Source: an uncultured cyanobacterium (GTDB lineage Bacteria > Cyanobacteriota > Cyanobacteriia > Cyanobacteriales > CAWCAG01). From it: a DNA stretch of 64,000 nt. The notes beneath the pieces are model-generated. The model had not been told where the DNA came from and did not search any database. It was given only the letters and a program-made list of their open reading frames with translations. The stretch spans positions 32,001 through 96,000 of the forward strand of contig CAWDOD010000009.1 in the NCBI GenBank assembly GCA_963803805.1, read 5' to 3'. Made by a program: the position numbers and the translations under genes. How positions within the stretch are numbered: position 1 is the first letter of the stretch; each line of letters begins with the position of its first letter. Below are positions 15,023-47,638 of this stretch, one piece after another.

Positions 15023-15700
15023 TTAAAGGTATCCCTGATGTCGAGCAAATTTTCGCAACTTAGGCAAACATTTTCTCTGGTAAAAATTAGCTAAAGTTGA
15101 GTAGGAACAGTCCCACTCAGCCCCTAATTGTTGCCAACTAGTTTCCGGGGGCAAACGGCGCAAAATTATGAGTTGACAAGTAATATCCTTTCTACCTTTT
15201 ACATGGATACTTCGTAATTCTCCTTCAGGATCGCTTTGAACCCAATGCCGGGTTTCCTCTTGAATATCTTGAGTAGCTGGAGGTGCAGGAATATTTTGCA
15301 CAGGGTCATAAAAATTACCTTCTTTCGCTGCTGATGGTAAAACTCGCTTTTCCTTTTCTGCTTGGGCTTGCAGATAAAAGTCTTGCAAACGGCGTTTGAG
15401 ATAACGATCTAACCAAGTTGTCACTAAACTCTTTTGGGGATTATATGGTTGTTTTGCCGTAACAGCTTCACAAAGATTGCGGCAAAGATATATCCAAGTT
15501 TGTTGCAAAGCATCTTCATAATAATCTGTCTGTTCATGCCAAAGTTTACCTGCTTTAGTGATAGCCGCAATCAAACGATTAAGGTATTTGCGTCGCTGTA
15601 AACTCTGGGGTGGTTGACAACAAGCTTGGTTGACTAACTGTTGAAGATAGTCTTTGTTCGGAATAGATGATGGTTTTTCTTCTGAGTTAGGACAACTCAT
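15023..15700 (-). CDS. Sigma-70-family (ECF-like) RNA polymerase sigma factor
   Basis: Sigma-2-like YYEDALQQTWIYLCRN...TTWLDRYLKRRLQD; C-terminal HTH WQQLGAEWDCSYSTLANFYQRKCLPKL; directly upstream of DUF1822. Confidence 0.8.
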   Translation of the reverse strand: MSCPNSEEKPSSIPNKDYLQQLVNQACCQPPQSLQRRKYLNRLIAAITKAGKLWHEQTDYYEDALQQTWIYLCRNLCEAVTAKQPYNPQKSLVTTWLDRYLKRRLQDFYLQAQAEKEKRVLPSAAKEGNFYDPVQNIPAPPATQDIQEETRHWVQSDPEGELRSIHVKGRKDITCQLIILRRLPPETSWQQLGAEWDCSYSTLANFYQRKCLPKLRKFARHQGYL

Positions 15701-16535
15701 GGTTAGCACTCTAATTTTGGCCTGTTATTTAAAAGCATCCACTATTACTTTTGCTGCAACAGCGATCGCCTTAATCTCTAGCCAATCAGGCCAAGCAGCA
15801 ACGATATCTACATCGGAATCTCAACCGATTGATTTAACCACCTGGCAACAAGAAGGTTCTCCTGAAAATGGTAACTGGGTTGTCTCTCCTGATGGTAGCT
15901 CAGTTCTCCAAACTATTAACGGAATTCCCACTTTCTTTGTTAGCCCCGACAATTTTATTGACACCGAAATTAAAGGAAAATTTGGCGTTGCATCACCTGG
16001 TAATTGGGATGATGACTGGATAGGCTTTGTCTTTGGATACCAGTCTCCGATAGCAGCTAATGGTGATGAACTCAACAACCTAAATTTCTTACTATTTGAC
16101 TGGAAGCAAAATGGAGGTATAAGCCGTGGTAACGAAGGCTTTAGTTTGATTAAAGTTGATGGTAACTTTACTAATCTTGATGCTACCTTCTGGAGACGTT
16201 CACCTACTCCTGAATTTGAATTTTTAGCTACTAACTACGGTTCGAATAAAGGTTGGCGAGATAATACCGAATATGATTTCACACTGCTTTATCAAAGCAA
16301 TCGCATCAAAATTGACATTGATGGAAGCACTATTTTTGATATCGAGGGTGAATTTGAGCCTGGGCGCTTTGGTTTTTATAATCACTCTCAAGAATATGTC
16401 GGTTATTCTGGGTTAACCCAAAAGCCAGCACCAGTGCCAGAATCTAGTTCTGTATTAGCTTTGTTAGGGGTTAGCACTGGGAGTTTTTTGCTTGCTCAAG
16501 GCAAAAAGCGAAAGAGTAAAGCATTAAGCAATTAG
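15699..16535 (+). CDS. PEP-CTERM protein with a thrombospondin C-terminal-like (lectin-fold) domain
   Basis: DDDWIGFVFGYQ resembles the TSP-C signature; ends PVPESSSVLALLGV...KKRKSK. The start position is uncertain. Confidence 0.8.
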   Translation: MVSTLILACYLKASTITFAATAIALISSQSGQAATISTSESQPIDLTTWQQEGSPENGNWVVSPDGSSVLQTINGIPTFFVSPDNFIDTEIKGKFGVASPGNWDDDWIGFVFGYQSPIAANGDELNNLNFLLFDWKQNGGISRGNEGFSLIKVDGNFTNLDATFWRRSPTPEFEFLATNYGSNKGWRDNTEYDFTLLYQSNRIKIDIDGSTIFDIEGEFEPGRFGFYNHSQEYVGYSGLTQKPAPVPESSSVLALLGVSTGSFLLAQGKKRKSKALSN

Positions 16536-16589: not shown

Positions 16590-17420
16590 TCAATTGAACT
16601 TGTTAACCTCTTCTACAGACAAACCTAAAGCCTCAGCCACCTGCTCTGTGGTTAGCCCCATACTCAACAATCGAGGAATAGAGTCTTGTAGTTTCTGTTC
16701 AGTCTGTTGCAGGTTTTGTTCAGCCTGTTGCAAATCCTGTTCAGCTTGTTGTAGATTCTGTTGGGCTATTTCTTCTGGCAAGGGGACTACATTCTCCCCA
16801 TCCTCGTCGTAGTAAAAACGTAACCAGCTTGCTTGCACCTCATCAATAACTCCATCCCAGGTTCCTAACCATAAACCTAAACTCTCACACCATAGCCAAC
16901 CTTTCCCGTTGGCTTCGAGGGCTTGATAGCCTTGTTGTAAATCCAAACTCCAGCCCAACAATGAATTGGGGTCAAAGGGATTAAACACAAAGTAATCTGG
17001 TGTGCGGAAAGTCTGTTCGTAGAGGTCTTTTTTCTTCCCTGTATCATTACTTGCTGTTGAACGAGACATCAGTTCAATGATGACATTTGGGTAACGGCCA
17101 TTTTCTTCCCAGACTACCCAACCTTGGCGTTCATAGGTTCCATCTATGTTTAAGACTAGAAAAAAGTCCGGCCCTCGGAAGTCTTGATTGCGAACTTGTT
17201 GGCTGCTGTAGTAGACAAACATATTGCCCCCAACAAAGTAGTCGGTTCGGTTAGCAAGAGCAGCAGGAATTGAGCGAATGAGGACATTCATCGCTTGTCG
17301 GTGGCGATTGGTTTCCAAGGGTTCTCCATCATCAAAGATTAACTCTGTCGGCGGTGGGGTTGGTTCCCATTCGACGGCATTATCAGTAGTATTTTGGTCT
17401 TGGCTTAGTAGGGTTGACAT
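16590..17420 (-). CDS. Uma2 family (PD-(D/E)XK) putative endonuclease
   Basis: DDGEPLETNRH, FRGPDFF, PNVIIELMS.STA..D..KK.LY; QAEQ coiled-coil tail. Confidence 0.92.
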   Translation of the reverse strand: MSTLLSQDQNTTDNAVEWEPTPPPTELIFDDGEPLETNRHRQAMNVLIRSIPAALANRTDYFVGGNMFVYYSSQQVRNQDFRGPDFFLVLNIDGTYERQGWVVWEENGRYPNVIIELMSRSTASNDTGKKKDLYEQTFRTPDYFVFNPFDPNSLLGWSLDLQQGYQALEANGKGWLWCESLGLWLGTWDGVIDEVQASWLRFYYDEDGENVVPLPEEIAQQNLQQAEQDLQQAEQNLQQTEQKLQDSIPRLLSMGLTTEQVAEALGLSVEEVNKFN

Positions 17421-17766
17421 GGCAGTTATAGCTATCAGGTTTAATAAGTTTAATTTAGCTTACTCAACATTTACCCATCTAATTGCTCCGGCTTGTGGAG
17501 CATTTTTTAGCTAGACAATATAAACGCTTTTGGTCGCAAAATGACCAAAGTTAAGTGTATTTAGGGATAGTCCTTTTTTTAAGGAAGAAAATGCTTAAGG
17601 AAAGTAAACGGCTGTTTTTCCCTAAGTCCCTTAAGCTACCTGTTAAGTAAATCTGAAAAAGATTGTAAAGATTTGTAAATAGCTACGAAAAACGACCCTT
17701 CTCATCCCGATACATTTACAGAGCAGAAAATACTTATCCCAATTTCAACTCCAACTAGAGATATCT

Positions 17767-18894
17767 ATGACTTCTTCAAAAAAACGTCTACAAGTTCATA
17801 TCCTCGAACCTATTCTTACTCCCAGTGGTTTATTTGATGGAGGAGAGGATACACCAGACCCCACATCTCTAGATATAGACCTAATAGATGACTTTGATAA
17901 TGGAGATATTGAGGATCTAACTTCCATCGCTGATGTTCCCATAGAGGAACTGGAAACTATAGACTTTATCAATGAACTAGACTTATCCTCTACTTTTGAA
18001 TCTGGTTACTTTACTGTCGGGGAAACAGGAGAAGTTAGTGTTGATTTCCTCTTCGATGGCGGTGGCTATGAAGGAGAAGTAGCTATTTTTAGTTTGGAGG
18101 GAATGGAGGAGTTTGCACCGGGTTCAGAAGAATTTATTGCTGAAGCGGCTAGTCGGAGTTTAAGTAATTCGGAGTTGGGCTATGTGGTGATTAGTGATTC
18201 CCTTGAAGGAGCTAGGTTTGAAGGAGATTTAGGGGAAGACAACCGCAACACTGGGGAATATCTTGGACTCAAAACAGTGAAGATGAAGCCTGGGGATGAG
18301 TTTGGTATCATGCTTGTTCCCAATCAATCTGTGCAGTACGTCTTGGAAAACCCTGATGCAGATGGTACAGCCCGTCCCCTTTTCTCAATGGCAACTGCTA
18401 ACCCTGATGATGGCTTTCATATTGGTCAAGTTGCGGATGTAACCGGGGACGGCAGCACCTTTGTGATGGAGGATTTGCGAGTTGATGGGAGGAGCGATCG
18501 CGACTACAACGATATCATTTTTCAAGTTAAGGGTGCTTTTGGTAAAGCTGAACTTTTAGATAATCTTATTGACGAAGATCTAGATTGGCGAGATACTGAA
18601 TTAGGGCAGCAACTCCTCCATTATGCAATCCCTGAAGTAATTGACCCTGTAGAAGATGTCACTCTCACAGGAGAAACTCCTCAAGTAACCATTGACTTAA
18701 ATAGTGTTTTCAATGATCCAGAAGGGCAAAAGTTAACCTATGAGGTTGTTAGTGGTAATGGGGAGAGTTTAGTAGCCAGTTTAGAGGAGAATTTATTAAG
18801 TTTAGTAGCCCAGGAAAAAACGGGTGTTAATACTGTTGCTATCCGTGCCATAGACCCAGATGGCAACTCCATAGTCCATAATTGGCAAACGTGA
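17767..18894 (+). pseudogene. N-terminal fragment of the giant protein (LEPILTPS leader, DUF4114-like domain, Ig/cadherin-like repeat), truncated by IS982
   Basis: FVMEDLRVDGRSDRDYNDIIF is DUF4114-like; FNDPEGQKLTYEV is cadherin-like; the stop codon lies inside the IS end. Confidence 0.8.
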
Positions 18895-19900
18895 GTTCGA
18901 TGAAGTTAAAAAACAGCAGAAGGAAGTTCAGCTAGGCCTTTGGGGTCAAGGTCAAGGGAAGGCTTTTTGGGCAAGAAAGTATAAGCGATTAGACCAGCTA
19001 AGAGATTAACCAAAAAATTCCAAACGCTACGGTGTCTTGAATGCTGAATCTGACAGATATTCTTGAGCTGGTCATTAACAGTCTCAATCAGAGAACGCTT
19101 ACGTAGGAGAATCTTATCCTGAAGACGCATTAACTTCGGCTTCATATTTTTCTTGCGGTGTGTAATCAGTTGTAGTCTTTGTTCATAGAGTTTCTCAAAC
19201 AAATCCTGAGAAATATAACCTCGGTCGCCAAATAACTTACCAATCAAGCCATCAGCCATATCTGGCACAGGGTTACGGTCATCAGTATTACCCTCTGTAA
19301 GTTTGAAAGCAAGCAGCTCACCTTTGTCATTAATAATTAGATGTAGCTTGAAGCCATAATGCCATCCCATAGCATTTTTGCCCCAACCTACCAAACCTTC
19401 AAAAACACGGTGGCTTTTGGAGCGATTCGGGTGGCAGACCTCAATGGGGGTAGAATCAATAAAGCTGATGCCGGTAATTTCTCCTCGAAGAGTATGTAGA
19501 AAACAGCAAAGAAGCATTAAGCTCCACGGCATTAGCTCTACGAATCGAGTGTAACTGACCAAGTTGGGAAAAGCTTTCTTCCAGTAAGGCAAGACTTGTA
19601 GAGTGTAAAATTCTTTAAAAGTGCGAAATCCCGAACCATGAAAGGCAATGACAATGGTCATCACTTCGCTTAGGCTTAGGCGGGAGCGACATAGACGCTC
19701 TCCACAAGTTGCTGTTAACATTGGCTGTTGTTGCCAATGCCTCTCAAACCTTTGATAAAAGTCATCTACCTGACAGAATATTTGGGTGATATCGAGACGA
19801 GATACAATATTGGACATAGCATCAGATTCTGATTAAGATTCATTTTCAGCATACCTCTGATGCTTTTCTTTTCTCTCTTTTTCCTCCGTCGAACTCACGT
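18889..19900 (-). mobile_element. IS982-family insertion sequence, complete
   Basis: TIRs ACGTGAGTTCGA / TCGAACTCACGT; target duplication TGGCAA at 18883-18888 and 19901-19906. Confidence 0.92.
18906..19817 (-). CDS. IS982-family transposase
   Basis: IDSTPI, GWHYGFKLHL, GDRGYIS and RKRSLIETVNDQLKN motifs. Confidence 0.95.
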   Translation of the reverse strand: MSNIVSRLDITQIFCQVDDFYQRFERHWQQQPMLTATCGERLCRSRLSLSEVMTIVIAFHGSGFRTFKEFYTLQVLPYWKKAFPNLVSYTRFVELMPWSLMLLCCFLHTLRGEITGISFIDSTPIEVCHPNRSKSHRVFEGLVGWGKNAMGWHYGFKLHLIINDKGELLAFKLTEGNTDDRNPVPDMADGLIGKLFGDRGYISQDLFEKLYEQRLQLITHRKKNMKPKLMRLQDKILLRKRSLIETVNDQLKNICQIQHSRHRSVWNFLVNLLAGLIAYTFLPKKPSLDLDPKGLAELPSAVF

Positions 19901-22900
19901 TGGCAAGTAACAGTAACTAATCTTGACCAGGAATCCATTCAAACCATTGAAACTGCCCTAAAACAAGTACAGAATTTACTGCAAACGGAAATAACTGAAG
20001 AATCATTTAGTAACTTAGATACACAGTTAGTAGAAATTGAAGAAATAATTAGGGAAAACTCCTCCTTAAAGAAATTTTTAACGCAACCGGAACAACTGCA
20101 ACAACTGGGTTTTAGTGAAGAAGGAATAGAAAGCCTCCAGGAAATCTTACAAAGTGAGGAGTTACAGGAGTTACTGGGTTTACCCACAGATTTAGAAACA
20201 GCCCTACAAGGTGATGCTTGGGATGAATATTTAATTAATGCCCAAATAGCAGAAGAAATACTGCCAGCGACAGCCGAGCATCCTGCTATAGGATTCTTGG
20301 ATTTTACTGGGGAACATGGAGAAAATACCACAGCAGCATTTGCCAATATTAACAGTTTAGCTAGTTATGAAACCCTACCCATTAGCCAAGGAAACTGGGC
20401 CGAACAATTAATTAAGTTTGTTGAGCAAGTTAAAGCTTCTGGTCAAAAAAATGCCATTGTTAACCTCAGCTTTGATTTAGCCCAAATTGATGAGGTTGGC
20501 ACTACTACCCGTTATGAAATTACCCCAGAAGAACAAATTGCCCTCAACTATGCGAGGGAAAATAATATTTTACTGGTGGTGGCTTCCGGTAATACTGGGG
20601 ATAGGATGTCGGCTTTGGGGGCTGCGGCAGAGGATTTTGATAATATTATTACCGTTGGTGCGGTTAACCGTTGGGAAGAAGTAACTGACTATTCCAGTCG
20701 TGGGGATGGGTTAACCCTGGTTGCACCGGGAGGAGAATTTGCCAATGATCCTGATGCTTTTGTTGGTACTTCCCGTGCCGCTGCCTATGTAACTGGTGCA
20801 GCCTCTTTAGTTTGGGCTGCTAATCCCGAATTGAGTTATCAGCAAGTTAAAGATATCCTCATGGCCACTGCCCAGGATTTAGGGCCAGAAGGTTGGGATG
20901 CTGATAGTGGGGCTGGTTTGTTGGATGTGACAGAAGCCTTGCTGATGGCTAGTTTGGTAAAACCAGAGGAAGTCATTCCCCCAGAAGCCCTTTCCCTATC
21001 TCCAGGTTTTAGTGGTCAAGGCAGGGTGCAACTCCTAGAAAGAGCAGCTTCCGCAGCAACGGCAGCAGAAATTGATAGGTTAGTTGATAGCCAAGATAGT
21101 TTACTGGAACAGTGGCAAATCCTAGCCCTAGCAGGAAATCCCTCCTTAACCTTAACTGAATTATCTTCCGTTGTGGCTGGGCAACAACAGGAAGGATTAG
21201 ATAAATATGAGGAAGTTAGTCGTACAGCAGCAATTGATAAAGCCCAGAATCAGCAATTAGCAGAAGCTTTAGTTTTAGCTACTAACCATTATCAAATCGA
21301 ACAACAGCGACTAGAGGCGCTAGAAGGCAGACAACAAGAATTGCAGAGTTTATTGGAGCAGCTAAAACAGGAAAAAACCCAATTGGAAGTAGTTCATCCT
21401 CAATATTTAGCTACCATAGAAACTGCGATCGCCCAAACTAAAAAGGACATTGCCCAAGCTAAAAACAAGCTTAAATACCAATTAGTTGACCCGGAAACCC
21501 TGTCAACTGACCCCACAGCGGCCAAGGAACAAGCTAAACAACAGTTAGCATTAGCTCAAGTTTATCGTGACCAAGCCCAGGCTTTAGCCACACAACAAAA
21601 CTATCATCAAGCCCTAGCTAATGACTACAGTTCTAAGACTCAAGATTGGGTAATTATCGGGCATGAGAAAAAGTCTTGCGGTCGCACGGGTAGTCCTATT
21701 TGGGGTTGGAGAACTAATCCACAAATGGTTGCACTTCATACACAACATCGGGATTTAGCAGGGATATTAGGTAACAATGCAGCTCAAAAGAATCAATTGG
21801 CAGCCCAATTAGAACAACAAGCAGCAGCCCTGACTACCCATAGTCATTTCCTAGAAGATAAAAACCAAAACCTCAGCCAATATGTAGGCAAACCAGAAGA
21901 AGGATTAGAACTCCTGCAATTACTCCAAACAGAAGCAACAAAGCAACAGGAAATTGCTAATCAATATTGGCTACAAGCCCAATTAGCTGAGAAACGGCGC
22001 AAACAAAACCAAGATACTGCCAACAGACACAACTCCCTAATTAATCGTTGGGAAGTAGTAGGACATCGACGTAGAAGTTGTGGTGGGAAGAAGCCAATTT
22101 ATGGTTGGCGACATTACCCAGAACATATTCCCCCCCGTAACCAAGCACAACAGCAAGCTAATATTGCTGAGGCGGAACGAAAGCAGTTGGAACAATTTGC
22201 TCAACAGGCGCAACAACTAGCGGATGCTTTGGCAGAAGAAGCAAAGCGTTTAGAAGAAAGGATTGAAGATTGGCCTAGTTTGAAGTGGGGAATTAATTCA
22301 GAAATCAATGCTTACAAACTTAAGCTACAGGGGGAAAAGGATTTATTAACACTGCAAACTCCTGTACAAAAGCAACAATTAGAAAAACTGAATTTGGAAA
22401 TTGACCAGTTAGAAGCAGAATTGCAAACGCTGGAAACCAGCCAAATTCCTAAGCAAAAGCGAACTATCGCTACACCAGAAAAGCGTTGGCAAAAACTCCA
22501 AGCAGAGGTGGAAGCAAGCCGTAAGGAGAGGGAAGCAAGTCAAAAGCAGTTGGAGAATTTCCTGGAAGTATCTGGTTATCTGCTGCCCTATCAGGAACGT
22601 AAAGCGGCTATTGAGAGGCAGATTAAGGAACTCGAAGCAGAGTCTGTGCAAGTACAGGAACTCATTCTCCAACTCTCCCAACATAATAACGGGAACCTGC
22701 AACCACAATTAGACCAAGCTAAGGAATACTTAGAAGATATAGAAGGAAGTTTAAACTGGGCTAAAATCCAGGAAGAACAGCTTCATCTTTCTGCTGCTGC
22801 CTCTCCCCAAAGGTTAGCCCTTAAGGCCCTGCTGAATAAACTCCAACAACGCCAACAGGCTGCTCTCCCCAGCAATAGCTTACCCCTACAGCATTATATT

Positions 22901-25900
22901 CAATTCCTAGAAGAAGTTGAAGCAGGAAATACTAATCTGTTGAAAGGGTTTAATAATTTAAGCGATCGCCTAACTAAAGCCCAGGCAGAACAGGAAACTA
23001 TTCCTCCTATATTGGAGAGATTAAAGGAAGAGTATCGTAATTTGGGTTTTGTGAAGACAGATTTAGAGAAGCAAGTTGCTCAACAACAAGAAAAGTTAGC
23101 TGCTAAGGATAAAGAGATTGCAACTATTAATGGACAAATTAAGAATACTAAAACTGCTGCTAATTTGCTACAAGATAAGTTGCAATTAGAGCAAGAATTA
23201 CAAGTAAACAAGCAAGAAGAAATTACTAATCAAGAAAAGAGAATTTCTCGAACTGAAACTAAGATAACTACATTGCAAGATAAAATTGATGGCAAGAATC
23301 AAGATATTGCTAGCCAGGAAGCGATTTTGCAAGATTATCAGCAGCAAATTAAACAAGCTGGGCAAATAGCAAAACAGCCCTACCTAGACGAAGCTGCTAA
23401 ATTTGAGCAAGAACGCATTTACCATCAGAATTCAGCTAACTCTTGGAATTCGCGAATTCCAGATTGGTTTCATGGCCTTTCCTCCGAATGTCAATCTCTT
23501 GCTTTAGGACAACCTCAAAATGCCTGGATTAAACAAGCTATTACCAATCGTAATAGTTATCAACATTTTGCTAATGTTAAGGCTAATCAAAGAAATAGAG
23601 CTAACAAACAAGCAGTAGAAGCAGGTCAAATTGCCTCTCAAGCTAAAGCTACTGAATTACAACCCCAAATTGAAGCTGTTAACCAAGAAATAAAGAAACT
23701 ACAAGAAGAAAAGCTTTCTTTGATTAAGTCCAAAAATACTCGGAAAGAAACCATAGAAGAGGAACAAAAAGAGCTACGAAAACTACAGCAAGAACTTACG
23801 AATATTGCTCAAAGAATTGAGTCTTTGAATGGAGAAATTAAAGTCAATCAAGAACAATTAATATCCTTAGATAAACAACTACAAAATCAACACATACAAA
23901 GGGATAATTTAATAGTAGTTCTTAATAATTGGCAGGAAAAACTAAAGGAACAAGAAGATAAATTAGCTGATAAATATCAAGAAATTGAACTAAGTGAACA
24001 GTACTTAGAACAAGTTGAACAGGAAATTAAACGTCTACAAAGTCGTTTAGATTTACTCAATCAAGCTGATGCTTTAGAACAGGAATATCAAAACCAAGAA
24101 CAACAGTGGCAAGAGGCACTGCAAAAACAAATAGCAGCTACCAAAACCCTTTTAGCCTCCCGTCAAGCAAAAGAAAGCGATCGCCAATTACTTTTATCCC
24201 TACAATCTCAGTTAGAGGATGTCCAAACCCAACTTACTCCCCTGCAAACGGAGGAAGCTAGCTTACAAGCAGAAGTTAACCAAGCAAACGAAGACTTTAT
24301 TTTTGCCCAGGAACAATTACGTAGTCAACAACTCCAACTACAAGCCCTTATAGACCGTGACCCTGGTTTAGTTAGTGCGGAGGCTTATCACTACAACCTT
24401 GCTCAACAACATCTTCGTCGCATTTGGTATTGGAATGGTCGTCAATATATTTTCAATTCTGGAGAAGCTGCGGCTTATCGTGCCAATCTGCAAAAAGCTT
24501 CTCTCCTAGCTGATGAACGTAATCGAGTTTGGCAACAAAGCCAGGAAATCAAGGATAATCTTCCTAAGTTAGAGGAAAAAAGCCAAGAGAAAGAGGTTGT
24601 TTGGTTAAATAAACAAGAGCAGTTAACGGAAGTGGAACAAAAAGTTGCTCCCCTTGTTACCCAAGCAACTAACCTACAACAGCAAATTACCCCCTTGCAA
24701 ACAAGTTTGGCCCCCTATTTAGCACAGGAACAAATTCAAACTCAAAACTTCCAAACAGCAGTTAATCAATCCCAAAGTGTAGCTGGGGAACTAATTGATA
24801 CAACCCTAGACCAAGTAGTTTCTTTGCAACGCCTGATTAGCTTTGGAGTCTTAGCAGCAGAATCCGATGTAGATTTCTTCCCCCTACAAGTAGAACCCAA
24901 GGTGCAAGAATTTATTAGGCAATTACAGCAACGGAGTGAAGATTTAGGTCAGCAAAGTGAACAGTTAGGTAAATTAATTGGGGACTGGCAAAAAGAATTA
25001 GGAAAAACCTCTGACCCTGCTAGCCGGGAAGCTTTAGAAAATTTAATTACCCAAACTACAGCACAGCGAGATACTTTGAGAATTTGGCTAGGAGATAATC
25101 AAGCTGCCATTAAACAACTCGAAGAACGGTTACAACAGGCCAATACTTCCCTGGAAGCCTTGCGGCAACAACAGGAATTAACCATTCGTCAAAACCTGGG
25201 CAGTAATGAAGAGCGTTTAGAGAATCTGCGATCGCAACTTGCTGTTGAAGAGGCAGCAGCAAATGCTCTGAACACTAATACAGTTTTGGGTTATGCGGAA
25301 TTAAACGACAAGGTTAAGGAAGATTTAACCCAAAGTACGATTCATTGGACGGAACAATTTAAAGAAGGTAATCAACAAACCAAGAATTTAGGTAAAGCAC
25401 AGCTTAATTTATCAGGGAATGTCGATCAGTTACTTACTCACATTGAAGATAACTTTGCTGATCCTCATGGTGAATATCATCGTAGTCATGCTAATTTACG
25501 AGATACTGTTGCTACATTAGGGGTGGTTGCCCCCCTTTATGATGAATTTGTGCAAGGGGAAACTCTTCTTAAGCAAGAAATTGCCAAGATGGAGCAGTGG
25601 ATTAAACAAGATGCCGAACTTTGGGAAGAGATTGCCCCCATTGTTGAGCGTTATGGAGTTGAGTCGGAAGAGTTAAAAGCTTATCAGCAACAGTATCAAT
25701 GGTATAAAGACCAAGATCAACAATTAGCAGATCAGTTTGAGGTGCAACGACAGCAATATCAAAACAATGCTAATTATTGGAGTAGTAAGGTACGTACTTG
25801 GGGTATTACTGGTTATAATAATTGGCTTTTCGGAAGATGGCCTGTCTATGGCTGGATTCACAACCCCCAAGCTGAAGCTAACCGCAAAGCCGCTCAAGCT

Positions 25901-27268
25901 AAGGCTAATGAGGCTACAAAAGAAAGGGATGCTGCTCTTGAGTTTCCCCAAGCTAAAGCTTTCCGTGGTCAATGGCTGACTGAAAATCCTAAGAACGGTA
26001 CAGCAATTGATATTCTTCACGAAGAAACCTCCTACCACAGCAACACCTATAACCAAAAATTAGCTCAGGCTCAAGCGAGTTATAACAACAACTCAGCCCA
26101 ATCTGCTGCGGCGATTTCTCAAGCAGATTGGTATGAAAAACGGGCCGCAGAACATTGGCAACGGAGCCGTAAAAACGGTCCCACTTGGCAGGAATGGCGT
26201 AGTACTTGGAAACGGGGTAAATCCGGTAAGAAAGAAGAGCATTCGGTGCTAGTTACCCATATCGACCATGATTGGATTCTTTGGGATACCTACACTAAAT
26301 ACGCCCAACAACTACGCCAGCAAGGAGTGGGCCAACTTCAAGCAGCTAGGGCCAGTGACCAGGCGCAAAAACGCTATGAACCTTTGGCTCAGCAGTGGAC
26401 AGATGCCCACAACGCCGTTAATCAAGCAGCCTCCCCTGTTAATGCACCCCGGAATTTAGTAGAAAGCCTAGAAGTTGCACGGGAACAAATACCTGGGGTG
26501 AAAGAACAGTTAAAGATTTTACAAGAATTGCTACCAGAAGTGGAAGACAAACTCCAGGAAGCGAAGAGAGAAAATACTACCTATCAAACTCAAGTTAAGG
26601 AAGAGTGGGCAGAGTATGAACCAGCCGGGGCAAGTTATCGTCAAGCAGTAGCAGATGTACTGCAACGTCAAGCTAAAGTCAACAAGCAGGCTCAGGAGTT
26701 ACAGCATCAGTTAGCTGATACGGAAATTTGGGTAGAAGGACAGAGTGTGGCTTTAGCAACGGAATTACAGGAAATTAAGGCCCTGGAAAAGCAGTTAATA
26801 GCCCAGGAACAGGTAATTGCTGGAGAAATTACTGCTTTAGTAAACCAAGGAGTAACGGTGGATGGTTTAGCTGACCTACAAACCCAACAGGCCCAGATTC
26901 AACAAATTCTCCCCTTGTTACAAAATAAAGATGCAGTACTGACGGCTCAACAAACGGCTTTAACCCAGAAACGTAATCTCCTAACTGCTCAGAATGAAGT
27001 AATTAATGCCGAACAGCAACTAATAAACGCCTATTTAGAGAGTCCCGATGGAGATTTAGGCAATCTGCGATCGCAACTCCAAGATGCCCGTGCTGCCCTA
27101 GCGGAGGCCCAAAGATTAGCAGAGCAAGCAGAAGCAAGTAGCCAAGCTTTAACCACTCCCCTACAGGAATTACAGGAGAACCTGCTATTACAAAATGATG
27201 CCCAACTTCAAGCTGCTAAGGAGCGCAAAACGATCCTTGATGACCTCCTAGAAGCTATCGAGATTTAG
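19901..27268 (+). pseudogene. Central part of the giant protein: S8 subtilase domain + very long coiled coil
   Basis: Frame is open from 19901 into the 2323-aa ORF; S8 motifs FLDFTGEHG, VNLS, VASGN and GTSRAAAYVTGAA; Q/E/K/L-rich heptads. Confidence 0.85.
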
Positions 27269-30204
27269 CTAGTGATAATGGCGGTAGTTGTGCCGGGGGA
27301 ATTGCTCGTCCTGAAGATGCTATTTTAGCTAACCGCTATCTCCACGAAAGCCTAGTTCACCAAGAATTACAACGTCGCGCCCAAGCACAGGCTAATGCTT
27401 TCCGCCAGGTTAAGGAAACAGCCCAGGCCCAGTTACAGACCCTCCAACAAGAACAAAATGCCGCACGGAGTCAATTGGAGCAACTGAATGAGCAAATTGC
27501 TGCTACCCAAGAGGAAAGGGAGAAAAAACAAGATGAATTAGCGATCGCAGAAGGTCGTTTAGATAGTATCACTCGCCTACGCAACTCCACAGAACAAACC
27601 TTTATTCAATTGGTTAACATAGAACAACTCAATTTAGCCCAAGCCAGTTTAGAGTTAGAAATTGCCCAACAGCGACAGGCTGAAATTGAAGAGGCTGTAA
27701 ATGCTCGTTTAGAAAGGGAGAAAATTGAGTTAGCAAGGCAGCGTTTAGAAGCGCAAGCGAAGATTGAACAGTTGCAGCAACTGCAATCAGAAGAGGAGTT
27801 ACGGCAAGCCTTAAACCAAGCCCGGAGTGATATTGGTTTAAAGGATTTGCAGGGGGGAGATGATCCTGTACAGTTACAAACCCAGTTAGCTGGATTGCTG
27901 GCTCAACTGAAGGATTTAGAAGGTCAACAACCAGATTTACAAGCTAATGTGAAGGCTTTGTTGGCAGAAGCAAAGGGGGATATTCACGAAGCACTGCAAG
28001 GAAAAGAAGCGACCACTATACAGGAAAATCTTCTCAAGGCGATGGGAGGTTTAATTGGGCAAGTGCAGCACCATCAAAGCCTATTAGCTGAATTGGAAGT
28101 TGAGGCTCAATGGGATAAGAATCTTTTAGCTCAGACGGAGCAGGATTTACAAGGGGCAACCCAGGAACTCCTGAAAGAAGTAGAACAAAATCAGCCCTTG
28201 CAGGATGCTTTAGCAGCAATCGAGCCCCTGTACACGGAAACCCTCACTAAAGTTGCCTATGCTAGCCAAGCTGTGGATATTTCCCAGGAGTTGGCAGCCC
28301 AATCTCGCAAACTGTTGGAGGATGTGATTACGCAACGGGTGGCAGAACGGAAAGCTAGGAAGAAATACTTTTGGAATCAGATGTTAGGTATGGTTTCCAG
28401 TATTCTTTCCATCGTTAGTATGATTCTGTTAGTAATTCCTCCAACTACTGCTATTGGTGCGATAACTGCCAAAATTGGCTTAGGAGTTTCTCTACTATCT
28501 GGTGCAATTAATGCTACCCAAGCAGCTATCAATGGCGATTTTATGGGAGCTATTTTCAGCGCTGTGATGGCTGGTACAAGTTTTGTTGGTGGTGCTATTG
28601 GTAATGCTCTCCAAGCTGGCAAACAAGCTATTTTGGGTATGACTCAGACAGTAGCCAAGAAAGTCGCCAGCACTATTAAGACAATGCAGGCTCTAGCTTC
28701 CGGTGCTTACAATTCAGTCCGCAGCTTTGCTTCTGGTGATAGCATTATGGGCTTCCTAAATATCGTTGCTGGGTTAGCTAGTACTGCGACTACAGGAATT
28801 GCTGGTTTTGCTGAAGGTGGTTTGCAAGGTTTGAGCGATTTAGGAAAGTTCGGCTACAAGGTACTAGATTCTCTATCTAAGGCTCCCACAGCTATTTATA
28901 GCGGTATTAAGGCGATTCAAAGTGGGGATTGGGTTAATGGCATTGGCAGTATTGTTAAGTCCGTTGTCTCCCTAGCTAATACCTGGACGAATGATTTTAA
29001 TGATGACCATGATTCCCCTGGGGAAAAGCTGGCTAATGTTTTGGAGAATATTAGTTCTGTTGGTATTGGTGTAAGTAAGTTTATTACTGGTGGTTTCCAA
29101 GGTTTGCTTGATGGAATTGGGGATATTGTTGGGGGGTTAAGTGATGATATATCTAAATTAATCAACAAGATTAAAGATAAACATCAATGTGGTTGCCTCA
29201 AGTTTGGAGAAAATATAGACGATCCTGATTTACTAAAATTAGCTAACTTAATTAATGTTAATCCAGAGGAAATTAGCATAGACGATGAAGGCAAATTACT
29301 TCTGAATGCAAGTAGTGCATATCTTAGCGAAAATCAAGAATCAATTGCCATAAGCGATGACTCTTTGGTTTTTGACAAAAAGGTTATTCAGCTTTTTTTG
29401 GCTAACCAAGAAGTTAATGGTTACTGTAGTTGTGCTTCTCAAAATTTGGTTATTATGCTTTATAAAGAAGGCTATCAGTTTGAAGAAGTTATTTCTCACA
29501 TTAGCTCAGAACAGTTCGAAAAAATTGATAAAAACTATGCAGGCATAGTGCATGATAAAAATCGAGAAATAGTAGAATATGCAGAATCTTTTAAAGTGAT
29601 AAAAGATGAAAAAATTATCACTTTATCACAAGAAGAGTGGGATAATTTACCAGAAGAATCTGTTCCTATTGCTCCCTATAAAAGACCTGGAAATACAGGA
29701 GCATCACCTGAAAAATTAGGTTTATTACTCCATGATTATGGTATTCCTATTACTCAAGTAGAAAAAGCCTCAAAGGAACAACTTATTGAGCAACTAAAGA
29801 ATGGTAAACCAGTCGTTGTAGGTGTTGGAGTGAGCCATTTACCATACTGGAAATTTAACGATGTTAGGGATGGTCATGCTTTAACTGTGATAGGTGTAGA
29901 AGATTCTAATTCAACAAACCCCACATTTATACTGGCAGATACTGGTATAGATATTCCTCACTATACCTCACAGGGAACAATGCAAAAGGTTAAGTGGAGC
30001 AATTTCAAGCAAGCTTGGGAAAAAGGAAGTGATAGACTCATGGTATACCCAAATTTTTCAATAACTGAATATCAGAAACTTATTAAAAATGGTGCATCTG
30101 CAAAAGACTTATTAGAGGAACGTCCTTCACAATTTTCTAAATTACGCATTACAAATAGTGAGTTTCCACATACAAAAGAAGGTTTTAATGCAACATATAA
30201 ATAA
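27262..30204 (+). pseudogene. C-terminal part of the giant protein: coiled coil, hydrophobic Gly/Ala-rich helices, C39-like cysteine peptidase
   Basis: Frame is open from about 27244 and overlaps the end of the previous frame; motifs QEVNGYCSCAS, DGHALTVIG and FILADTG. Confidence 0.75.
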
Positions 30205-30550: not shown

Positions 30551-31321
30551 ATGAAAAGATTATTGACAGTAACAGGTCTTTCTGTTGGGATTGCTTCTTT
30601 GATGAGCTTATCAGCACAAGCTGTAGTTCTCTTTGAAGAGGACTTTGACACACCCGTAGGTTATACTGGCAACGCTCTGAATGGAGATCTTTCAAGTAAA
30701 AAAGTAAATTCTCTTCATGGTACTTCTTTTCAAAATAGTTTCACCGTAGAAACTTTACGCATCGCAGGTGGCAAGACCTTCAGCGATCCTAGTGGTACAG
30801 GCGGAGAATATGCTTTGGGTATGCTTTCATCTGCACAAAATGATCTTGTTTCAGCAGTCTTTGATACTCAATCATTAGCTTTTTTGAACCTTAATATCGA
30901 TATCTCTGCCATTGATCTTGATTGCTGCGGGGGACCATTTAACCCAACAGGATTCCTGGTTCCCCAGTTTGAGTTCAGGCTATATGACGCGCCATCAGGT
31001 GTCTTTAATCTGTTTGCACCGGGGACTCTACTAGACAGTGAGAGCATTGTGGGTACGCCATCCGACAGGACTACATTTTCCTGGACTAACCATACCGTTG
31101 CACTTGATGCGAGCAGCAGTACTGATGGCAATGTAGCTCTTGTTATAGACTTGCTTGAGGGGGGCTATGCCTCCTTTGATAATCTTGTCATTGCATCATC
31201 AGATGATGCGGGTGGTGGCCTACCCAGTGAGACTGTTCCTGAGCCTTCATCAATATTAGGTTTAATTGCCTTGGGGATTTTCGGCGCAAGTTCATTGCGA
31301 AAATCTAAGAAATTACAATAG
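30551..31321 (+). CDS. PEP-CTERM sorting domain protein
   Basis: Signal peptide ending AQA; C-terminal VPEPSSILGLIALGIFGASSLRKSKK; GAGGAG RBS upstream. Confidence 0.92.
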   Translation: MKRLLTVTGLSVGIASLMSLSAQAVVLFEEDFDTPVGYTGNALNGDLSSKKVNSLHGTSFQNSFTVETLRIAGGKTFSDPSGTGGEYALGMLSSAQNDLVSAVFDTQSLAFLNLNIDISAIDLDCCGGPFNPTGFLVPQFEFRLYDAPSGVFNLFAPGTLLDSESIVGTPSDRTTFSWTNHTVALDASSSTDGNVALVIDLLEGGYASFDNLVIASSDDAGGGLPSETVPEPSSILGLIALGIFGASSLRKSKKLQ

Positions 31322-31570: not shown

Positions 31571-31774
31571 ATGATAGAGGATGATGAACCTCAAAAAACC
31601 TATCACGTCAAAGCAGCAGTAAGTAAAAAAGCTTGTGAGGAAATAGCTCAAAAGTATAACCAAAGGTTAGTTGATGCTATAGACAATGACGATCCTATTT
31701 TAAGTAAAGATTGCTTGTTTTATGGTTCTCCCTTTAACTTTCAAGAGGAATGGTATGACCACCAAGATAATTAA
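31571..31774 (+). CDS. Hypothetical protein
   Basis: 67 aa; AGGA RBS; overlaps the start of the next gene. Confidence 0.6.
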   Translation: MIEDDEPQKTYHVKAAVSKKACEEIAQKYNQRLVDAIDNDDPILSKDCLFYGSPFNFQEEWYDHQDN

Positions 31775-32114
31775 GCGTAGCTACATTTACATCGCCCAGT
31801 TGGGAAACGAGGAAGCCCCCCAAACCAGGCTACCTTTGGGTAATGCTATGAACCTTTTGGGTTCTCATCTAGATTATGATACCAAACCAGATATTCCTCA
31901 ACCTGGCGATCGCCCAGTAACAGTACAACAAAACCCCTCATCAGAAAAATCAAGCTGTATTGAGGTTAGTGAGGCAGATTGGCTTGTAGTCAGCGTATGT
32001 AAATTTGTTAGTGAGGGTGAAGAAGTTTACTTTTGCTATTGTCAATACTCTCCTGTGGAGAAAAACTGGCAACCTGTACCCAGAACAGAAGAACTACTAA
32101 AGCCTTCAAGCTAA
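31755..32114 (+). CDS. Hypothetical protein
   Basis: Likely ATG at 31755 after GAGGA; motifs PQPGDR, WLVVSV and CYCQYSP. Confidence 0.65.
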   Translation: MTTKIIKRSYIYIAQLGNEEAPQTRLPLGNAMNLLGSHLDYDTKPDIPQPGDRPVTVQQNPSSEKSSCIEVSEADWLVVSVCKFVSEGEEVYFCYCQYSPVEKNWQPVPRTEELLKPSS

Positions 32115-32223: not shown

Positions 32224-33225
32224 ATGAACTACAGCCACCGCCTTGCAGTTACCGAAGATACAAATGCGATCGCAACTCTTTGGCAAGCCTTTGCCCAGGA
32301 AAGAGCAACAATTGACCCTTCAATGGCTATTAAGCCAGACTTTGACTTTACCCAATACATTACCAATCAACTAGCCAATCCTCTTAACTATGCTTGGGTT
32401 TTGGAACATAATAAAGAGACTACAAAAGAAATCGTCGGTTGCATAATCATCTACTTCTATGATGAAGCCCCCCCTTCTAACCTTCCTCAAGAAATGTTGG
32501 AACAACATGAAATTGATAACCCCTTCATTTCTCGCCGGGTTGCCTCTGTTTTAGGTCTTTATGTCAAACTAGAACATCGTCAAGCAGAAGTAATTCAACT
32601 CCTTGCCAAAGTAGCCATTGCTAAAGCAGAGGAAATGCAAGTTAACGATATTGATCTACTCATTAGTGCTGACAAAACGGGTATCCAAGCATTGCTGCAA
32701 AGGGCTGGGTTTACTAAAGCTGCTGTACAATATACGAAGCATTATGACCTCTCTGTGAATGCTAAATTACCTAATCTCCATCCCTCTCACCCTGAAGTTG
32801 ACTTCCCCCAACCTCCATTACCAAAAGCAATTCCCCTGCGCGCCCCCCAAACAGGAGAATTGGTACGCAATCATGAAGGGGAACCAGTTTTTCTTTTCCC
32901 CCTAGAAACAGAAGCAATTGAAGCAAGCAAGTTACCCATTTATCCTACTCCAATACGCCACCCCCAAACCCAAGACTTTATCTTTAATAGCCAAGGAGAA
33001 TTAGTTGTTTCTCCGGTTTTACGGGACAAAGACGGTAAAGTTATTGAATATAAGGGCATTCCTCAGTTTCATCCTCCTGCTTATCAAACTATTCAAGGAA
33101 AACTCCACCTTAAACAGAACGAAGCGGGGGATTACATTTTTTGTGAAGTGGAGCTAGACAAAGAAGGAGAAATAATTTTTACTCCAGAAGGTCAACCAGT
33201 TTTTAAGCAATCTTTAACCGCGTAG
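32224..33225 (+). CDS. GNAT-family N-acetyltransferase with a C-terminal extension
   Basis: GNAT-like VLGLYVKLEHRQ and ALLQRAGF; C-terminal repeated D..G..VF/P beta-hairpin motifs. Confidence 0.7.
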   Translation: MNYSHRLAVTEDTNAIATLWQAFAQERATIDPSMAIKPDFDFTQYITNQLANPLNYAWVLEHNKETTKEIVGCIIIYFYDEAPPSNLPQEMLEQHEIDNPFISRRVASVLGLYVKLEHRQAEVIQLLAKVAIAKAEEMQVNDIDLLISADKTGIQALLQRAGFTKAAVQYTKHYDLSVNAKLPNLHPSHPEVDFPQPPLPKAIPLRAPQTGELVRNHEGEPVFLFPLETEAIEASKLPIYPTPIRHPQTQDFIFNSQGELVVSPVLRDKDGKVIEYKGIPQFHPPAYQTIQGKLHLKQNEAGDYIFCEVELDKEGEIIFTPEGQPVFKQSLTA

Positions 33226-34047: not shown

Positions 34048-34899
34048 TTAGTGATACCTACGGTGGGCTTTGCCTACGCAACAAGAAATAATTGATTGTT
34101 CTGCTAAGGATTCTAAACCCACATACTCTGATTTTAATAAATCTCGTAAGTATAGTTTAGCTAGTTCTGAATCGAGAGGGTATAACTCTTGCAAAATAGT
34201 GGTTATCGTTTCATTCCAAAGACCATCTTGAGCATAAAGAATGACTTTTTCTTCTGGTTTTGCTGTAGGTATAGGAGTTAGTTGAGGTGTTGCATTTACT
34301 CTTCTTAGATTACCTTCTACATAAACATCAGAATCTCTATTTTCGGGGTCACAAATAATTGTCAAACTCCAATAATAATTTTTTCCTACTACTAGAGGTT
34401 TATCCTGTAAAATAATACTAACAATTCCCGGAGTTTTATCTATTTTATAGATGCCATTGTGGGCAACCTCTTGGCTTTCATTGGTCATGACTAGAAACTC
34501 TGCTTCTAGTTCTCCTTTAGCAGGATAAGGAATATAGAACCAGAAAGTAGGAGATTCTTGAGCAGTGATAGACCAAAGAGTTTTATCTTCTGCAACTTGA
34601 TTGTTATCCTGTGAGGCCAAACCTTCACCTGGAACTAAAGCTGTTAAGTTAGGGATAGATTGAGGGCATCTATCTTCACCATAACTGCCAGTAGCAGACT
34701 GACTAGATGGCCCTTGTTCAGATCCTTTTTTAGCTCTGGGAATAAATATTAATTCATTATTAGTGTTGGTAGTAATTTCTTCGGTAACACTAGGAGTTTG
34801 TGCTACTATTTTCTCTTCAACTAGAGACAAGATACTAAGAGTAAAAAATGCTACAAGAGCAAGCTTACTGATTAGGAGAAATGAGAAAAATAGTTTCAT
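34048..34899 (-). CDS. DUF928 family exported protein
   Basis: Signal peptide; motifs LTALVP, PTFWFYIPY, TPGIVSI, YYWSLTIICDP and YAQDGLWNE. Confidence 0.88.
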   Translation of the reverse strand: MKLFFSFLLISKLALVAFFTLSILSLVEEKIVAQTPSVTEEITTNTNNELIFIPRAKKGSEQGPSSQSATGSYGEDRCPQSIPNLTALVPGEGLASQDNNQVAEDKTLWSITAQESPTFWFYIPYPAKGELEAEFLVMTNESQEVAHNGIYKIDKTPGIVSIILQDKPLVVGKNYYWSLTIICDPENRDSDVYVEGNLRRVNATPQLTPIPTAKPEEKVILYAQDGLWNETITTILQELYPLDSELAKLYLRDLLKSEYVGLESLAEQSIISCCVGKAHRRYH

Positions 34900-34903
34900 A
34901 ATT

Positions 34904-37291: not shown

Positions 37292-37295
37292 TGCT

Positions 37296-40040: not shown

Positions 40041-40075
40041 AAAAACTCCATCTCATACCTATTACTGATTACCCA

Positions 40076-47509: not shown

Positions 47510-47638
47510 GATCATCGAAGGGAACAGGAGACTACATAAATTACTCTGGTTCAATGCCCTCCTTTTTATGCAGCTATCCCCGGATTTGCTATATATTTTA
47601 ATATTTGTTAATAATTTGCAATAGCTAAATCACTTCTC

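Follow-up and report, generated by a model that had tools for sequence, protein, structure and literature searches.

We analysed a stretch of 64,000 nucleotides of an uncultured cyanobacterium (assembly GCA_963803805.1, contig CAWDOD010000009.1, positions 32,001 to 96,000), which is referred to here as the window. The analysis is wholly computational and concerns a giant gene at 17767-30204, which, based on its open reading frames (ORFs), its homologues and a target site duplication (TSD), is one gene split into three ORFs by an insertion sequence (IS) element and a deletion. It is an inactivated member of a family of giant proteins (3,200-5,800 amino acids, aa) of filamentous cyanobacteria that probably serve as delivery proteins of the polymorphic toxin type. 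The ORFs are found on the + strand at 17767-18894 (ORF 1, frame 1), 20297-27268 (ORF 2, frame 2, open from 19880) and 27475-30204 (ORF 3, frame 1, open from 27244). With both lesions taken into account the gene consists of three pieces, also on the + strand. Piece 1 (17767-18888, 374 codons) contains the start codon, a K/R-rich N-terminus, a conserved motif, an acidic linker, a DUF4114 domain and an Ig-like stretch that runs up to the IS element. Piece 2 (19907-27255, frame 2, 2,449 codons and 2 nt) contains a helical linker, an S8 protease domain and a heptad-rich helical stalk, and piece 3 (27256-30204, frame 1, 982 codons and the stop) the end of the stalk, a hydrophobic module and a C-terminal tail. 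The coded length is now 3,806 codons and was about 3,868 before the deletion. The giant gene is single-copy in the source genome.

Concerning the homologues, a search of 41 related genomes with piece 3 gave matches in five. Three of these genomes (G039, G005 and G033) have their matches in stop-free frames of 4,291, 4,153 and 4,143 codons, and G020 contains two more distant copies. The relatives L015, L016 and L017 each encode the S8 domain, the coil and the hydrophobic region in one frame, of 4,261, 4,123 and 4,114 aa respectively; DUF4114 is found in L015 and L017, and L016 has a C-type lectin domain in its place. A protein search returned 88 relatives of 2,274-5,452 aa, and those with a named organism come from filamentous cyanobacteria, except for one Microcystis entry. 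The only database names that they have are 'S8 family serine peptidase', 'DUF4114 domain-containing protein', 'peptidoglycan DD-metalloendopeptidase family protein' and 'chromosome segregation ATPase'. Across taxa of the same order the hydrophobic module is present in 35 of 401 genomes (about 1 in 11) and in 24 of 142 genera, and the 45 matches in these genomes include 28 distinct open frames of 3,182-5,790 codons; a search for related loci among genome contigs had given 2 loci, and the 401-genome search was used instead. The genome G001, of the same genus, has no match to the giant gene, and the flanks of the gene in the window have matches there which are short, multi-copy or inverted. Family-wide counts are based on representatives of clusters at 90% or 50% identity and on a sample of genomes, and for several relatives the contig is short and the sequence may be incomplete. 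The original prediction had read the three ORFs as one gene. This reading stands, as the homologues are collinear and in a single frame, the TSD is exact and a relative has the empty site. Homologues that encode the parts as separate genes were also looked for, and L015, L016, L017 and the 28 distinct frames are all single genes.

The IS element (18889-19900, - strand) is 1,012 bp long, has 11-bp inverted ends and carries a transposase ORF at 18906-19817 (minus strand, 303 aa), which matches PF13612 DDE_Tnp_1_3 in Pfam at 243 bits; we presume that the name IS982 applies to transposases of the PF13612 type. The element is flanked by two direct copies of TGGCAA, at 18883-18888 (left) and 19901-19906 (right). 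The features of an IS element are thus all present, namely a DDE transposase, inverted ends, a 6-bp TSD and multiple copies: the source genome (G000) contains 12 copies at 100% identity, 2 diverged copies and one fragment of 35 nt. Once 1,018 nt are excised, ...HNWQ continues in frame into VTVTNLDQ..., in agreement with the earlier claim that removal of an IS982 element with the TSD TGGCAA restores the frame. Assembled contigs of three public metagenome runs were compared with the window: run X1 is the probable source sample, and runs X2 and X3, from another study, contain a relative 90-95% alike to the window copy. In the related strain of X2 and X3 a contig joins 18880 directly to 19899, which is the empty site. 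In X1 the IS element is assembled as a separate contig with a depth of 51.9, compared with 3-8 for the flanks.

The second lesion lies at the junction 27255/27256 (+ strand). It was mapped by blastx of the window DNA against five homologues, where the frame 2 and frame 1 matches meet at this point; frame 2 reaches a stop at 27266-27268 and frame 1 resumes at 27256. Exactly 62 residues that are kept in four of four homologues (L015, L016, L017 and L018) are absent at the junction, and from the frames of the two matches the loss therefore comprises 62 codons and one base. A frameshift had been predicted near 27260. The break is there, but it is not a shift of one base; because the lesion is an out-of-frame deletion of 62 codons and 1 nt, no simple change of frame would allow the protein to be read through. 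The deleted form is present in a contig of X1 that covers 26743-27958. The contigs of the X2/X3 relative leave the window sequence at 27255 and re-enter it at 27283, and their letters past the break translate like both ends of the 62-residue segment of the homologues. As the relative, 90-95% identical, is intact at both lesion sites, the window copy is, on the sequences compared, a recent and inactive pseudogene of a gene that was intact in a recent ancestor. One contig of X1 enters the window at 27256 from letters that resemble the end of the missing segment, so an undeleted variant may co-exist in this sample.

Many members of the family start with a K/R-rich stretch, which is followed by the motif TFILEPILTPSG(I/L)VDG. 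The conserved motif HILEPILTPSGLFDGG is located at 17797-17844 (+) of the window; the window copy has the form KKRLQVHILEPILTPSGLFDGG and a second group of members the form LIDVLITDTLPGS. We considered the LEPR-XLL N-terminal domain, an NCBIfam model, for this motif and rejected it, as no NCBIfam model matches the first 60 aa of the giant protein at E<=1. Readings of the motif as a double-glycine leader or as prepilin-like were also rejected, since conservation does not extend to the GG and the motif is not followed by a hydrophobic stretch. The DUF4114 domain covers aa 173-256 (about 18283-18534, +; Pfam E 4.6e-25). The papers on DUF4114, in the parts available, concern PilY1 adhesins of Myxococcus and cyst-wall and mannose-binding proteins of Acanthamoeba, which suggests that the domain is a surface-binding module. 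Other domains of extracellular type found among family members, beside DUF4114, are C-type lectin, cadherin-like, FG-GAP, RTX, dockerin and Calx-beta.

The S8 subtilase domain is located at 20279-20926 (+; PF00082, E 2.5e-21). The match reaches 76.7 bits against a curated cut-off of 21.8 and covers positions 93-288 of the 288 positions of the profile, so the subtilase domain of the original prediction is real by this measure. The domain is present in 73 of the 88 relatives. Candidate catalytic residues on the + strand are the D in GFLDFTG (20291-20311) and the H in EHGEN (20312-20326), both chosen by motif and conservation, and the N in VNLSFDL (20459-20479) and the S in VGTSRAA (20762-20782), both within the profile match. 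Each of the four columns (GFLDFTG, EHGEN, NLS and GTS) is kept by 90% or more of 74 family sequences. An identity as mycosin was rejected, the NCBIfam mycosin model giving 90 bits against a cut-off of 278.75.

The stalk (21047-28347, +, about 2,440 aa) spans the deletion, is poor in proline and rich in helix formers, and is heptad-periodic. Its periodicity was measured in segments of 42 aa against shuffled sequence, with the 95th percentile of the shuffles as the threshold. In the helix-rich stretch 119 of 291 segments (41%) and 16 of 47 segments (34%) exceed this threshold, and in the N-terminal part, the S8 part and the tail 0% of the segments do. Weak matches to SMC coils are also found in the stalk (NCBIfam). 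The heptad register thus agrees with the roughly 2,400 aa of coiled coil that had been proposed. The proposed order of the parts is also confirmed by the Pfam domains, the heptad test and the position of the hydrophobic region (28348-29196), and the earlier list of parts is right because the domains are matched and the heptad signal is confined to the helix-rich stretch. Across the family this order is conserved up to the hydrophobic module. Three conserved islands rich in Trp and Gly are found in the stalk, at 21647-21709, 22049-22108 and 25799-25855; they follow the pattern W-x-[IV]-x-G-[HY]...P-[IV]-[YW]-G-W, and the same island opens the partial relative P0062. These islands may be knobs or hinges.

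The hydrophobic module (28348-29196, +) is a Gly/Ala-rich region of 283 aa which runs from RKARKKYFW to KDKHQCGC, with a C-x-C at the border of the tail. It can be aligned in 85 of the 88 relatives, and among 1.84 billion proteins it has 61 matching representatives, of which those inspected are family members or fragments of them. The AlphaFold2 model of the module, made from an alignment of 26 rows, predicts about ten helices with low confidence. The nearest language-model clusters in the Atlas are the type III secretion translocators SctE/IpaB/SseC, with a score of 0.89, which we take as a lead only. Pfam searches of 26 modules at E<=10 gave SseC (PF04888) in 6, NolX in 5, HlyE in 5 and DUF2207_C in 12 (best E 0.009); the best SseC match, in the relative L020, reaches 29.5 bits against a cut-off of 30.2. 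Judged by these sequence matches, the module resembles the membrane-inserting helical families of the SseC, NolX and HlyE types in kind, below the threshold for membership. A search of the PDB sequences with the module gave nothing meaningful. The C-x-C at the border (window 29173-29196) is present in 27 of 67 long-tail members and hence is not a universal mark of the border; a Cys is found within the last 12 residues in 17 of 18 short-tail members.

After the module the family diverges. Eighteen relatives end 10-33 aa past the module, and the other 67 and the window protein run on for 127-2,844 aa. Clustering of the 68 long tails gives 44 groups at 60% mutual coverage and 17 by single linkage. 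Pfam domains in 40 tail representatives are Lipase, M23, Ntox44, Amidase_2, Lipase_3, GH19, LysM and, in the window, C39_2/BtrH_N, and most representatives are without a family; distant members add Lipase, Amidase_3, Pesticin (PF16754, in two members) and RTX repeats. The unrelated tails of P0017, P0023, P0046, P0047, P0048, P0051, P0077 and P0087 begin with a common helical adaptor, which has weak MgtE_N/FliG_M matches (E 1e-7 to 4e-7 in P0048 and P0023). This adaptor may be a pre-toxin linker, and it accounts for the merging of tail clusters under single linkage.

The tail of the window protein (29197-30201, +, 335 aa) is a putative papain-fold peptidase of the C39-like type. Searched alone, it matches PF13529 Peptidase_C39_2 at 29.9 bits (cut-off 24) and PF14399 BtrH_N at 34.7 bits (cut-off 29.7), both above the cut-offs and both consistent with the papain-fold end which the original prediction had named; its Atlas neighbours are Peptidase_C39_2 clusters with a score of 0.94. 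The candidate Cys is in NGYCSC (29416-29433, +), outside the profile match and conserved in P0059, and the candidate His is in RDGHALTV (29866-29889, +), a region within the match. In the homologue searches with the tail the longer proteins comprised only the ORF of the window itself, with nothing near the length of the tail, and the PDB sequence search gave nothing meaningful.

The short-tail relatives have a different arrangement. Based on 28 loci with flanking DNA, all four short-tail loci have an RHS/YD-shell gene 106-291 nt downstream on the same strand, followed by orphan RHS ends. The RHS/YD-shell match in this partner gene is 252.7 bits, and P0083 has a TcdB_toxin_midN match (E 3e-6). 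With the same query, and with matches of fewer than 60 residues dropped, no RHS shell is found after the 24 long-tail genes; an ORF of 94 aa in L052 clusters with ORFs derived from RHS genes. The toxin tip of the L015 RHS protein (residues 1107-1230) shares 73% identity (E 1e-52) with the tail that the giant protein of L016 carries, so the same cassette rides on either scaffold. A complex prediction for the C-terminus of a short-tail protein and the N-terminus of its RHS partner scored 0.41, against 0.02 for the best control, which points weakly to docking. Of 157 solved complexes 116 reached the mark, as did 2 of 215 mismatches; at scores of 0.60 or less it was reached by no more than 18 of the solved complexes, and the two mismatches both belong to this range. 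In this prediction the pLDDT of the partners is at least 37 and the runs agree in at least 9% of the contacts. The C-terminal cargo that the original prediction had suggested thus has strong comparative support, from the hypervariable tails on a conserved body and from the tip common to an RHS protein and a giant protein.

A small gene is also linked to the giant gene. The GNAT partner gene (32224-33225, +, 333 aa) lies 2 kb downstream of it in the window and encodes a GNAT fold (aa 1-175) and beta-hairpin repeats (aa 200-333). The product is 57-60% identical to the neighbours of the giant genes in L015 and L016, and 43% identical to that in the distant L018. Among the 41 related genomes the partner is found in five of five carriers of the giant gene, always on the same contig, and in none of 36 non-carriers; the five carriers are kin and so not independent, though they belong to five different families. 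In a wider set of 28 loci the partner is near the giant gene in 18, and in 4 of the remaining 10 the available DNA past the giant gene is shorter than 2 kb. The partner of L017 is found 8.6 kb downstream of the giant gene. The AlphaFold2 model of the partner has a pLDDT of 86.6, and in Foldseek its N-terminal half matches N-acetyltransferases (E about 1e-7). Scans with Pfam and NCBIfam returned only generic GNAT families, and the PDB sequence search nothing meaningful. The partner is tandem-duplicated in L067 (5055-7061) and L071 (7347-9412), and in L016 a fragment at 17306-17542, upstream of the full copy, is 90% identical to the first 79 residues of that locus's own partner.

Small variable ORFs follow the tails. 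In the window the first gene after the tail encodes a PEP-CTERM protein (30551-31321, +, 256 aa) with a start like a signal peptide, which is a candidate immunity or accessory gene. Further on, before the GNAT gene, comes an ORF of 130 aa (31722-32114, +) with no family match. Pairs of small ORFs, one of them XisH-like (E 8.8e-49 in L016, at 17480-17986), recur between the giant and GNAT genes in L016, L020, L021, L052 and L062.

The family shares features with several known systems. Polymorphic toxins such as CdiA, Rhs and MafB have, according to the accessible part of the survey of Zhang et al. 2012 (PMC3482391), a long conserved body followed by C-terminal toxin or enzyme domains that are hypervariable, cassettes common to several scaffolds and orphan toxin ends downstream, and the giant family is like them in all these respects. 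Subtilisin is given there as a processing protease that is rare, and Tox-PLC39 as a toxin of the papain-like kind; the same part of the survey never uses the word 'coiled', and where it mentions Microcoleus, twice, the subject is PVC toxins. Unlike these toxins, the family has a helical heptad stalk and a hydrophobic module, not an FHA beta-helix or an RHS shell, its partner is a GNAT protein, no immunity genes were identified, and it has no leader of the two-partner secretion (TPS), PAAR, LXG or signal peptide type; in particular, the TPS domain of the CdiA route is not found by Pfam in the giant protein of the window or in L015-L019. Tc toxins (TcA with the TcB/TcC cocoon) resemble the four short-tail relatives, four of four, in that a membrane-active giant is followed by an RHS cocoon with an exchangeable tip. 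However, the RHS proteins of the family start with an FN-plug and lack the TcB propeller, and most members, including that of the window, fuse the enzyme directly and have no cocoon. No TcA family domain is found in the window protein or in L015-L019 (Pfam).

The SctE translocators (IpaB, YopB, SseC; PF04888) have a coiled stretch, a basic cluster and then Gly/Ala-rich hydrophobic helices, as does the giant family, but here all matches are below the cut-off, there is no type III context and the module is a small part of a protein of 4,000 aa. Tape-measure proteins and effectors of contractile injection systems (CIS), such as Sle1, are similar in their long helix, hydrophobic segments and, in some, exchangeable C-terminal domains, as far as the available part of PMC13277306 goes, whereas the giant family has no phage or CIS context, contains lectin-type and S8 domains and is much longer. 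Two distant members, which carry a Pesticin domain, resemble pesticin and lytic bacteriocins (PF16754), in which a delivery protein ends in a muramidase that acts in the periplasm; their delivery part is of another kind, and an import domain of the TonB-box type is not seen. RTX and MARTX toxins are giant exported toxins with a dedicated acyltransferase. The likeness lies in the genetic tie to a small acyltransferase of the GNAT fold and in the RTX repeats of the distant branch, and the difference in the partner, which is a generic GNAT with beta-hairpin repeats, and in the window protein, which is without RTX repeats. No paper describing this architecture was found in the full-text literature, a coverage that excludes subscription journals and supplements. 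As the family follows the logic of polymorphic toxins and no published match to its architecture was found, we consider it a probable new delivery body for polymorphic cargo.

The reading that we consider probable, namely that the giant proteins deliver variable cargo in the manner of polymorphic toxins, is based on two traits of such toxins that are both found here: a conserved body whose C-terminal domain differs abruptly from member to member, and toxin or lytic C-terminal domains which are common to other scaffolds. Any single step of the mechanism outlined next is less certain than the reading as a whole. The giant protein would be exported, which we infer because relatives carry lectin, cadherin, RTX and dockerin-type modules. 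The lectin-type modules would bind a surface, and the helical stalk would keep the far end of the protein at a distance from the producing cell, perhaps across the sheath. The hydrophobic module would insert into the outer or the cytoplasmic membrane of the target, like type III translocators or tape-measure proteins, and the insertion would bring the tail enzyme or the docked RHS cocoon to the periplasm or the membrane of a competitor. The S8 domain might cut the precursor, and the GNAT partner might acylate or acetylate the giant protein. In its boldest form, which is possible but doubtful, this becomes an undescribed contact-dependent delivery machine of filamentous cyanobacteria in a single polypeptide, with lectin-type heads, a self-cutting S8 domain, a stalk, a translocator-like pore for the membrane of a neighbour, a fused enzyme that acts in the periplasm or a docked RHS cocoon, and activation by the GNAT partner as a dedicated acyltransferase. 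The alpha-helical stalk of such a machine could reach some hundreds of nm, enough to cross a sheath, and the machine would carry out the principle of the Tc toxin, or of the type III translocon, with one chain and in bacterial warfare.

Several observations weigh against a delivery role. Export is an assumption to the extent that the giant protein of the window has no signal peptide and no TPS, PAAR, LXG or RTX secretion domain (Pfam, NCBIfam), and that no secretion genes are found beside the giant gene in the window or in the loci of the relatives. All matches of the module to pore or translocator families stay below the curated cut-offs; the module of the window itself has a match only to NolX (E 0.082) and none to SseC at E<=10, its AlphaFold2 model is of low confidence (pLDDT 54.8), and Foldseek of this model against the PDB gives nothing at E<=0.001, only generic helical bundles. 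The Pfam match of the S8 domain lacks profile positions 1-92, and the roles of the candidate D and H are tentative because both lie outside the match and are five residues apart. No immunity gene was identified, and in the 28 loci the families of the downstream ORFs do not track the type of tail cleanly. The tail of the window protein has a single relative, the tail of P0059, and in many members the tail is a cell-wall enzyme, for which the producer's own wall would be an equally possible substrate. Finally, the window copy is broken in its source genome.

The main rival accounts for the kinds of enzyme in the tails. The giant protein could be a self-directed envelope protein whose hydrophobic helices anchor in the cytoplasmic membrane of the producer, whose stalk is structural or measures a distance, and whose hydrolase remodels the wall of the producing cell or lyses it, as might happen in filament breakage, in necridia or in programmed lysis. 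Most of the named tails are peptidoglycan hydrolases or lipases, the lack of a signal peptide or a recognised secretion domain fits such a protein, the members with named organisms are nearly all from filamentous cyanobacteria, and 12 of the 26 modules have the membrane-protein matches of the DUF2207_C type mentioned above. A housekeeping role, however, is a poor fit to 44 clusters among 68 tails and to the loss by an IS element and a deletion in the window, and it leaves unexplained the Ntox44 and Pesticin domains, the RHS cocoons with orphan toxin ends directly downstream and the patchy distribution (35 of 401 genomes, none in G001 of the same genus). We therefore consider it unlikely, though the strongest of the alternatives.

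Less probable still is an intracellular effector of conflict or abortive infection in multicellular cyanobacteria, in which a cytoplasmic sensor and stalk, once triggered and cut by the S8 domain, would push the module into the cell's own membrane and set free the lytic enzyme, which would kill the infected cell. The combination of a protease with a membrane-active part is a layout suited to this role, as are the absence of a signal peptide and the abundance in the window of CHAT, CHASE2 and TPR genes, which are typical of such systems. The extracellular-type modules and the RHS partners of family members speak against it, and no NTPase or sensor domain was found with Pfam and NCBIfam in the window or the relatives. 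Slightly more improbable again is a protein of the tape-measure type derived from a phage or a contractile injection system, the helix measuring the tube, the hydrophobic segment forming the channel and the lytic end opening the wall. It draws on phrog_58 (tail length tape measure protein), which matches the module of L016 at E 3e-4 and 20.2 bits and thus one of the two full-length relatives scanned, on a viral cluster among the Atlas neighbours of the module (score 0.84) and on an actinobacterial contractile system which, in the part of PMC13277306 available, has tape-measure-related effectors with exchangeable C-terminal domains. Yet the pieces of the window have no PHROG tape-measure match, the sole PHROG match being the S8 'protease' family; no phage or tail genes are found around the giant gene in the window or in the loci of five relatives, the N-terminal lectin-type and S8 domains and the length of 4,000-5,800 aa are atypical, and the conserved partner is a GNAT protein and not a tail chaperone. 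That the hydrophobic region might match a simple anchor or a tape-measure protein had been named as a way in which the original prediction could fail, and the window offers neither a PHROG tape-measure match nor neighbouring phage genes in favour of it. The remaining alternative, that the three ORFs are separate genes whose continuity is due to chance, has in its favour a possible start codon in each ORF, but it is scarcely credible in view of the collinear homologues in a single frame, the exact TSD on both sides of the IS element and the empty site of the relative.

Interbacterial weapons of cyanobacteria are poorly known, and the mat- and bloom-forming filaments of the Oscillatoria type live in dense mixed communities. 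If the giant proteins are indeed a delivery system, they would provide a new trafficking architecture for polymorphic toxins, made of a helical stalk, a hydrophobic translocator module and a GNAT partner. The dozens of unnamed C-terminal domains would then be candidates for new toxins or lytic enzymes, and the family would show, in nature, one cargo that is fused in some members and supplied through an RHS cocoon in others. Seen beside the intact close relative from other samples, the broken copy would also indicate that such weapons are being lost through IS activity.

Some features of the window surround the giant gene. A second and different transposase gene (10869-11882, +; PF01609, E 1.9e-22) lies among CHAT/TPR genes, and the region is rich in mobile elements. 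An ORF of 293 aa at 15654-16532 (+) matches the C-terminal region of thrombospondins (TSP_C, E 8.2e-15), which is unusual in bacteria. The TPS-domain proteins of the window are encoded by genes separate from the giant gene. One, at 6336-9698 (-), is a protein of 1,120 aa with an N-terminal TPS domain (E 1.9e-41) and a C-terminal CHAT protease domain (E 3.4e-64). Another is part of a row of genes on the - strand at 34048-47551, which contains a DUF928 gene (34048-34935), a CHAT and CHASE2 gene (34904-37303), a TPR and CHAT gene (37296-40037) and, at 40076-47551, a TPS-domain protein of 2,491 aa with DUF5649/DUF5650 repeats. This row is a second large system of exported proteins beside the giant gene.

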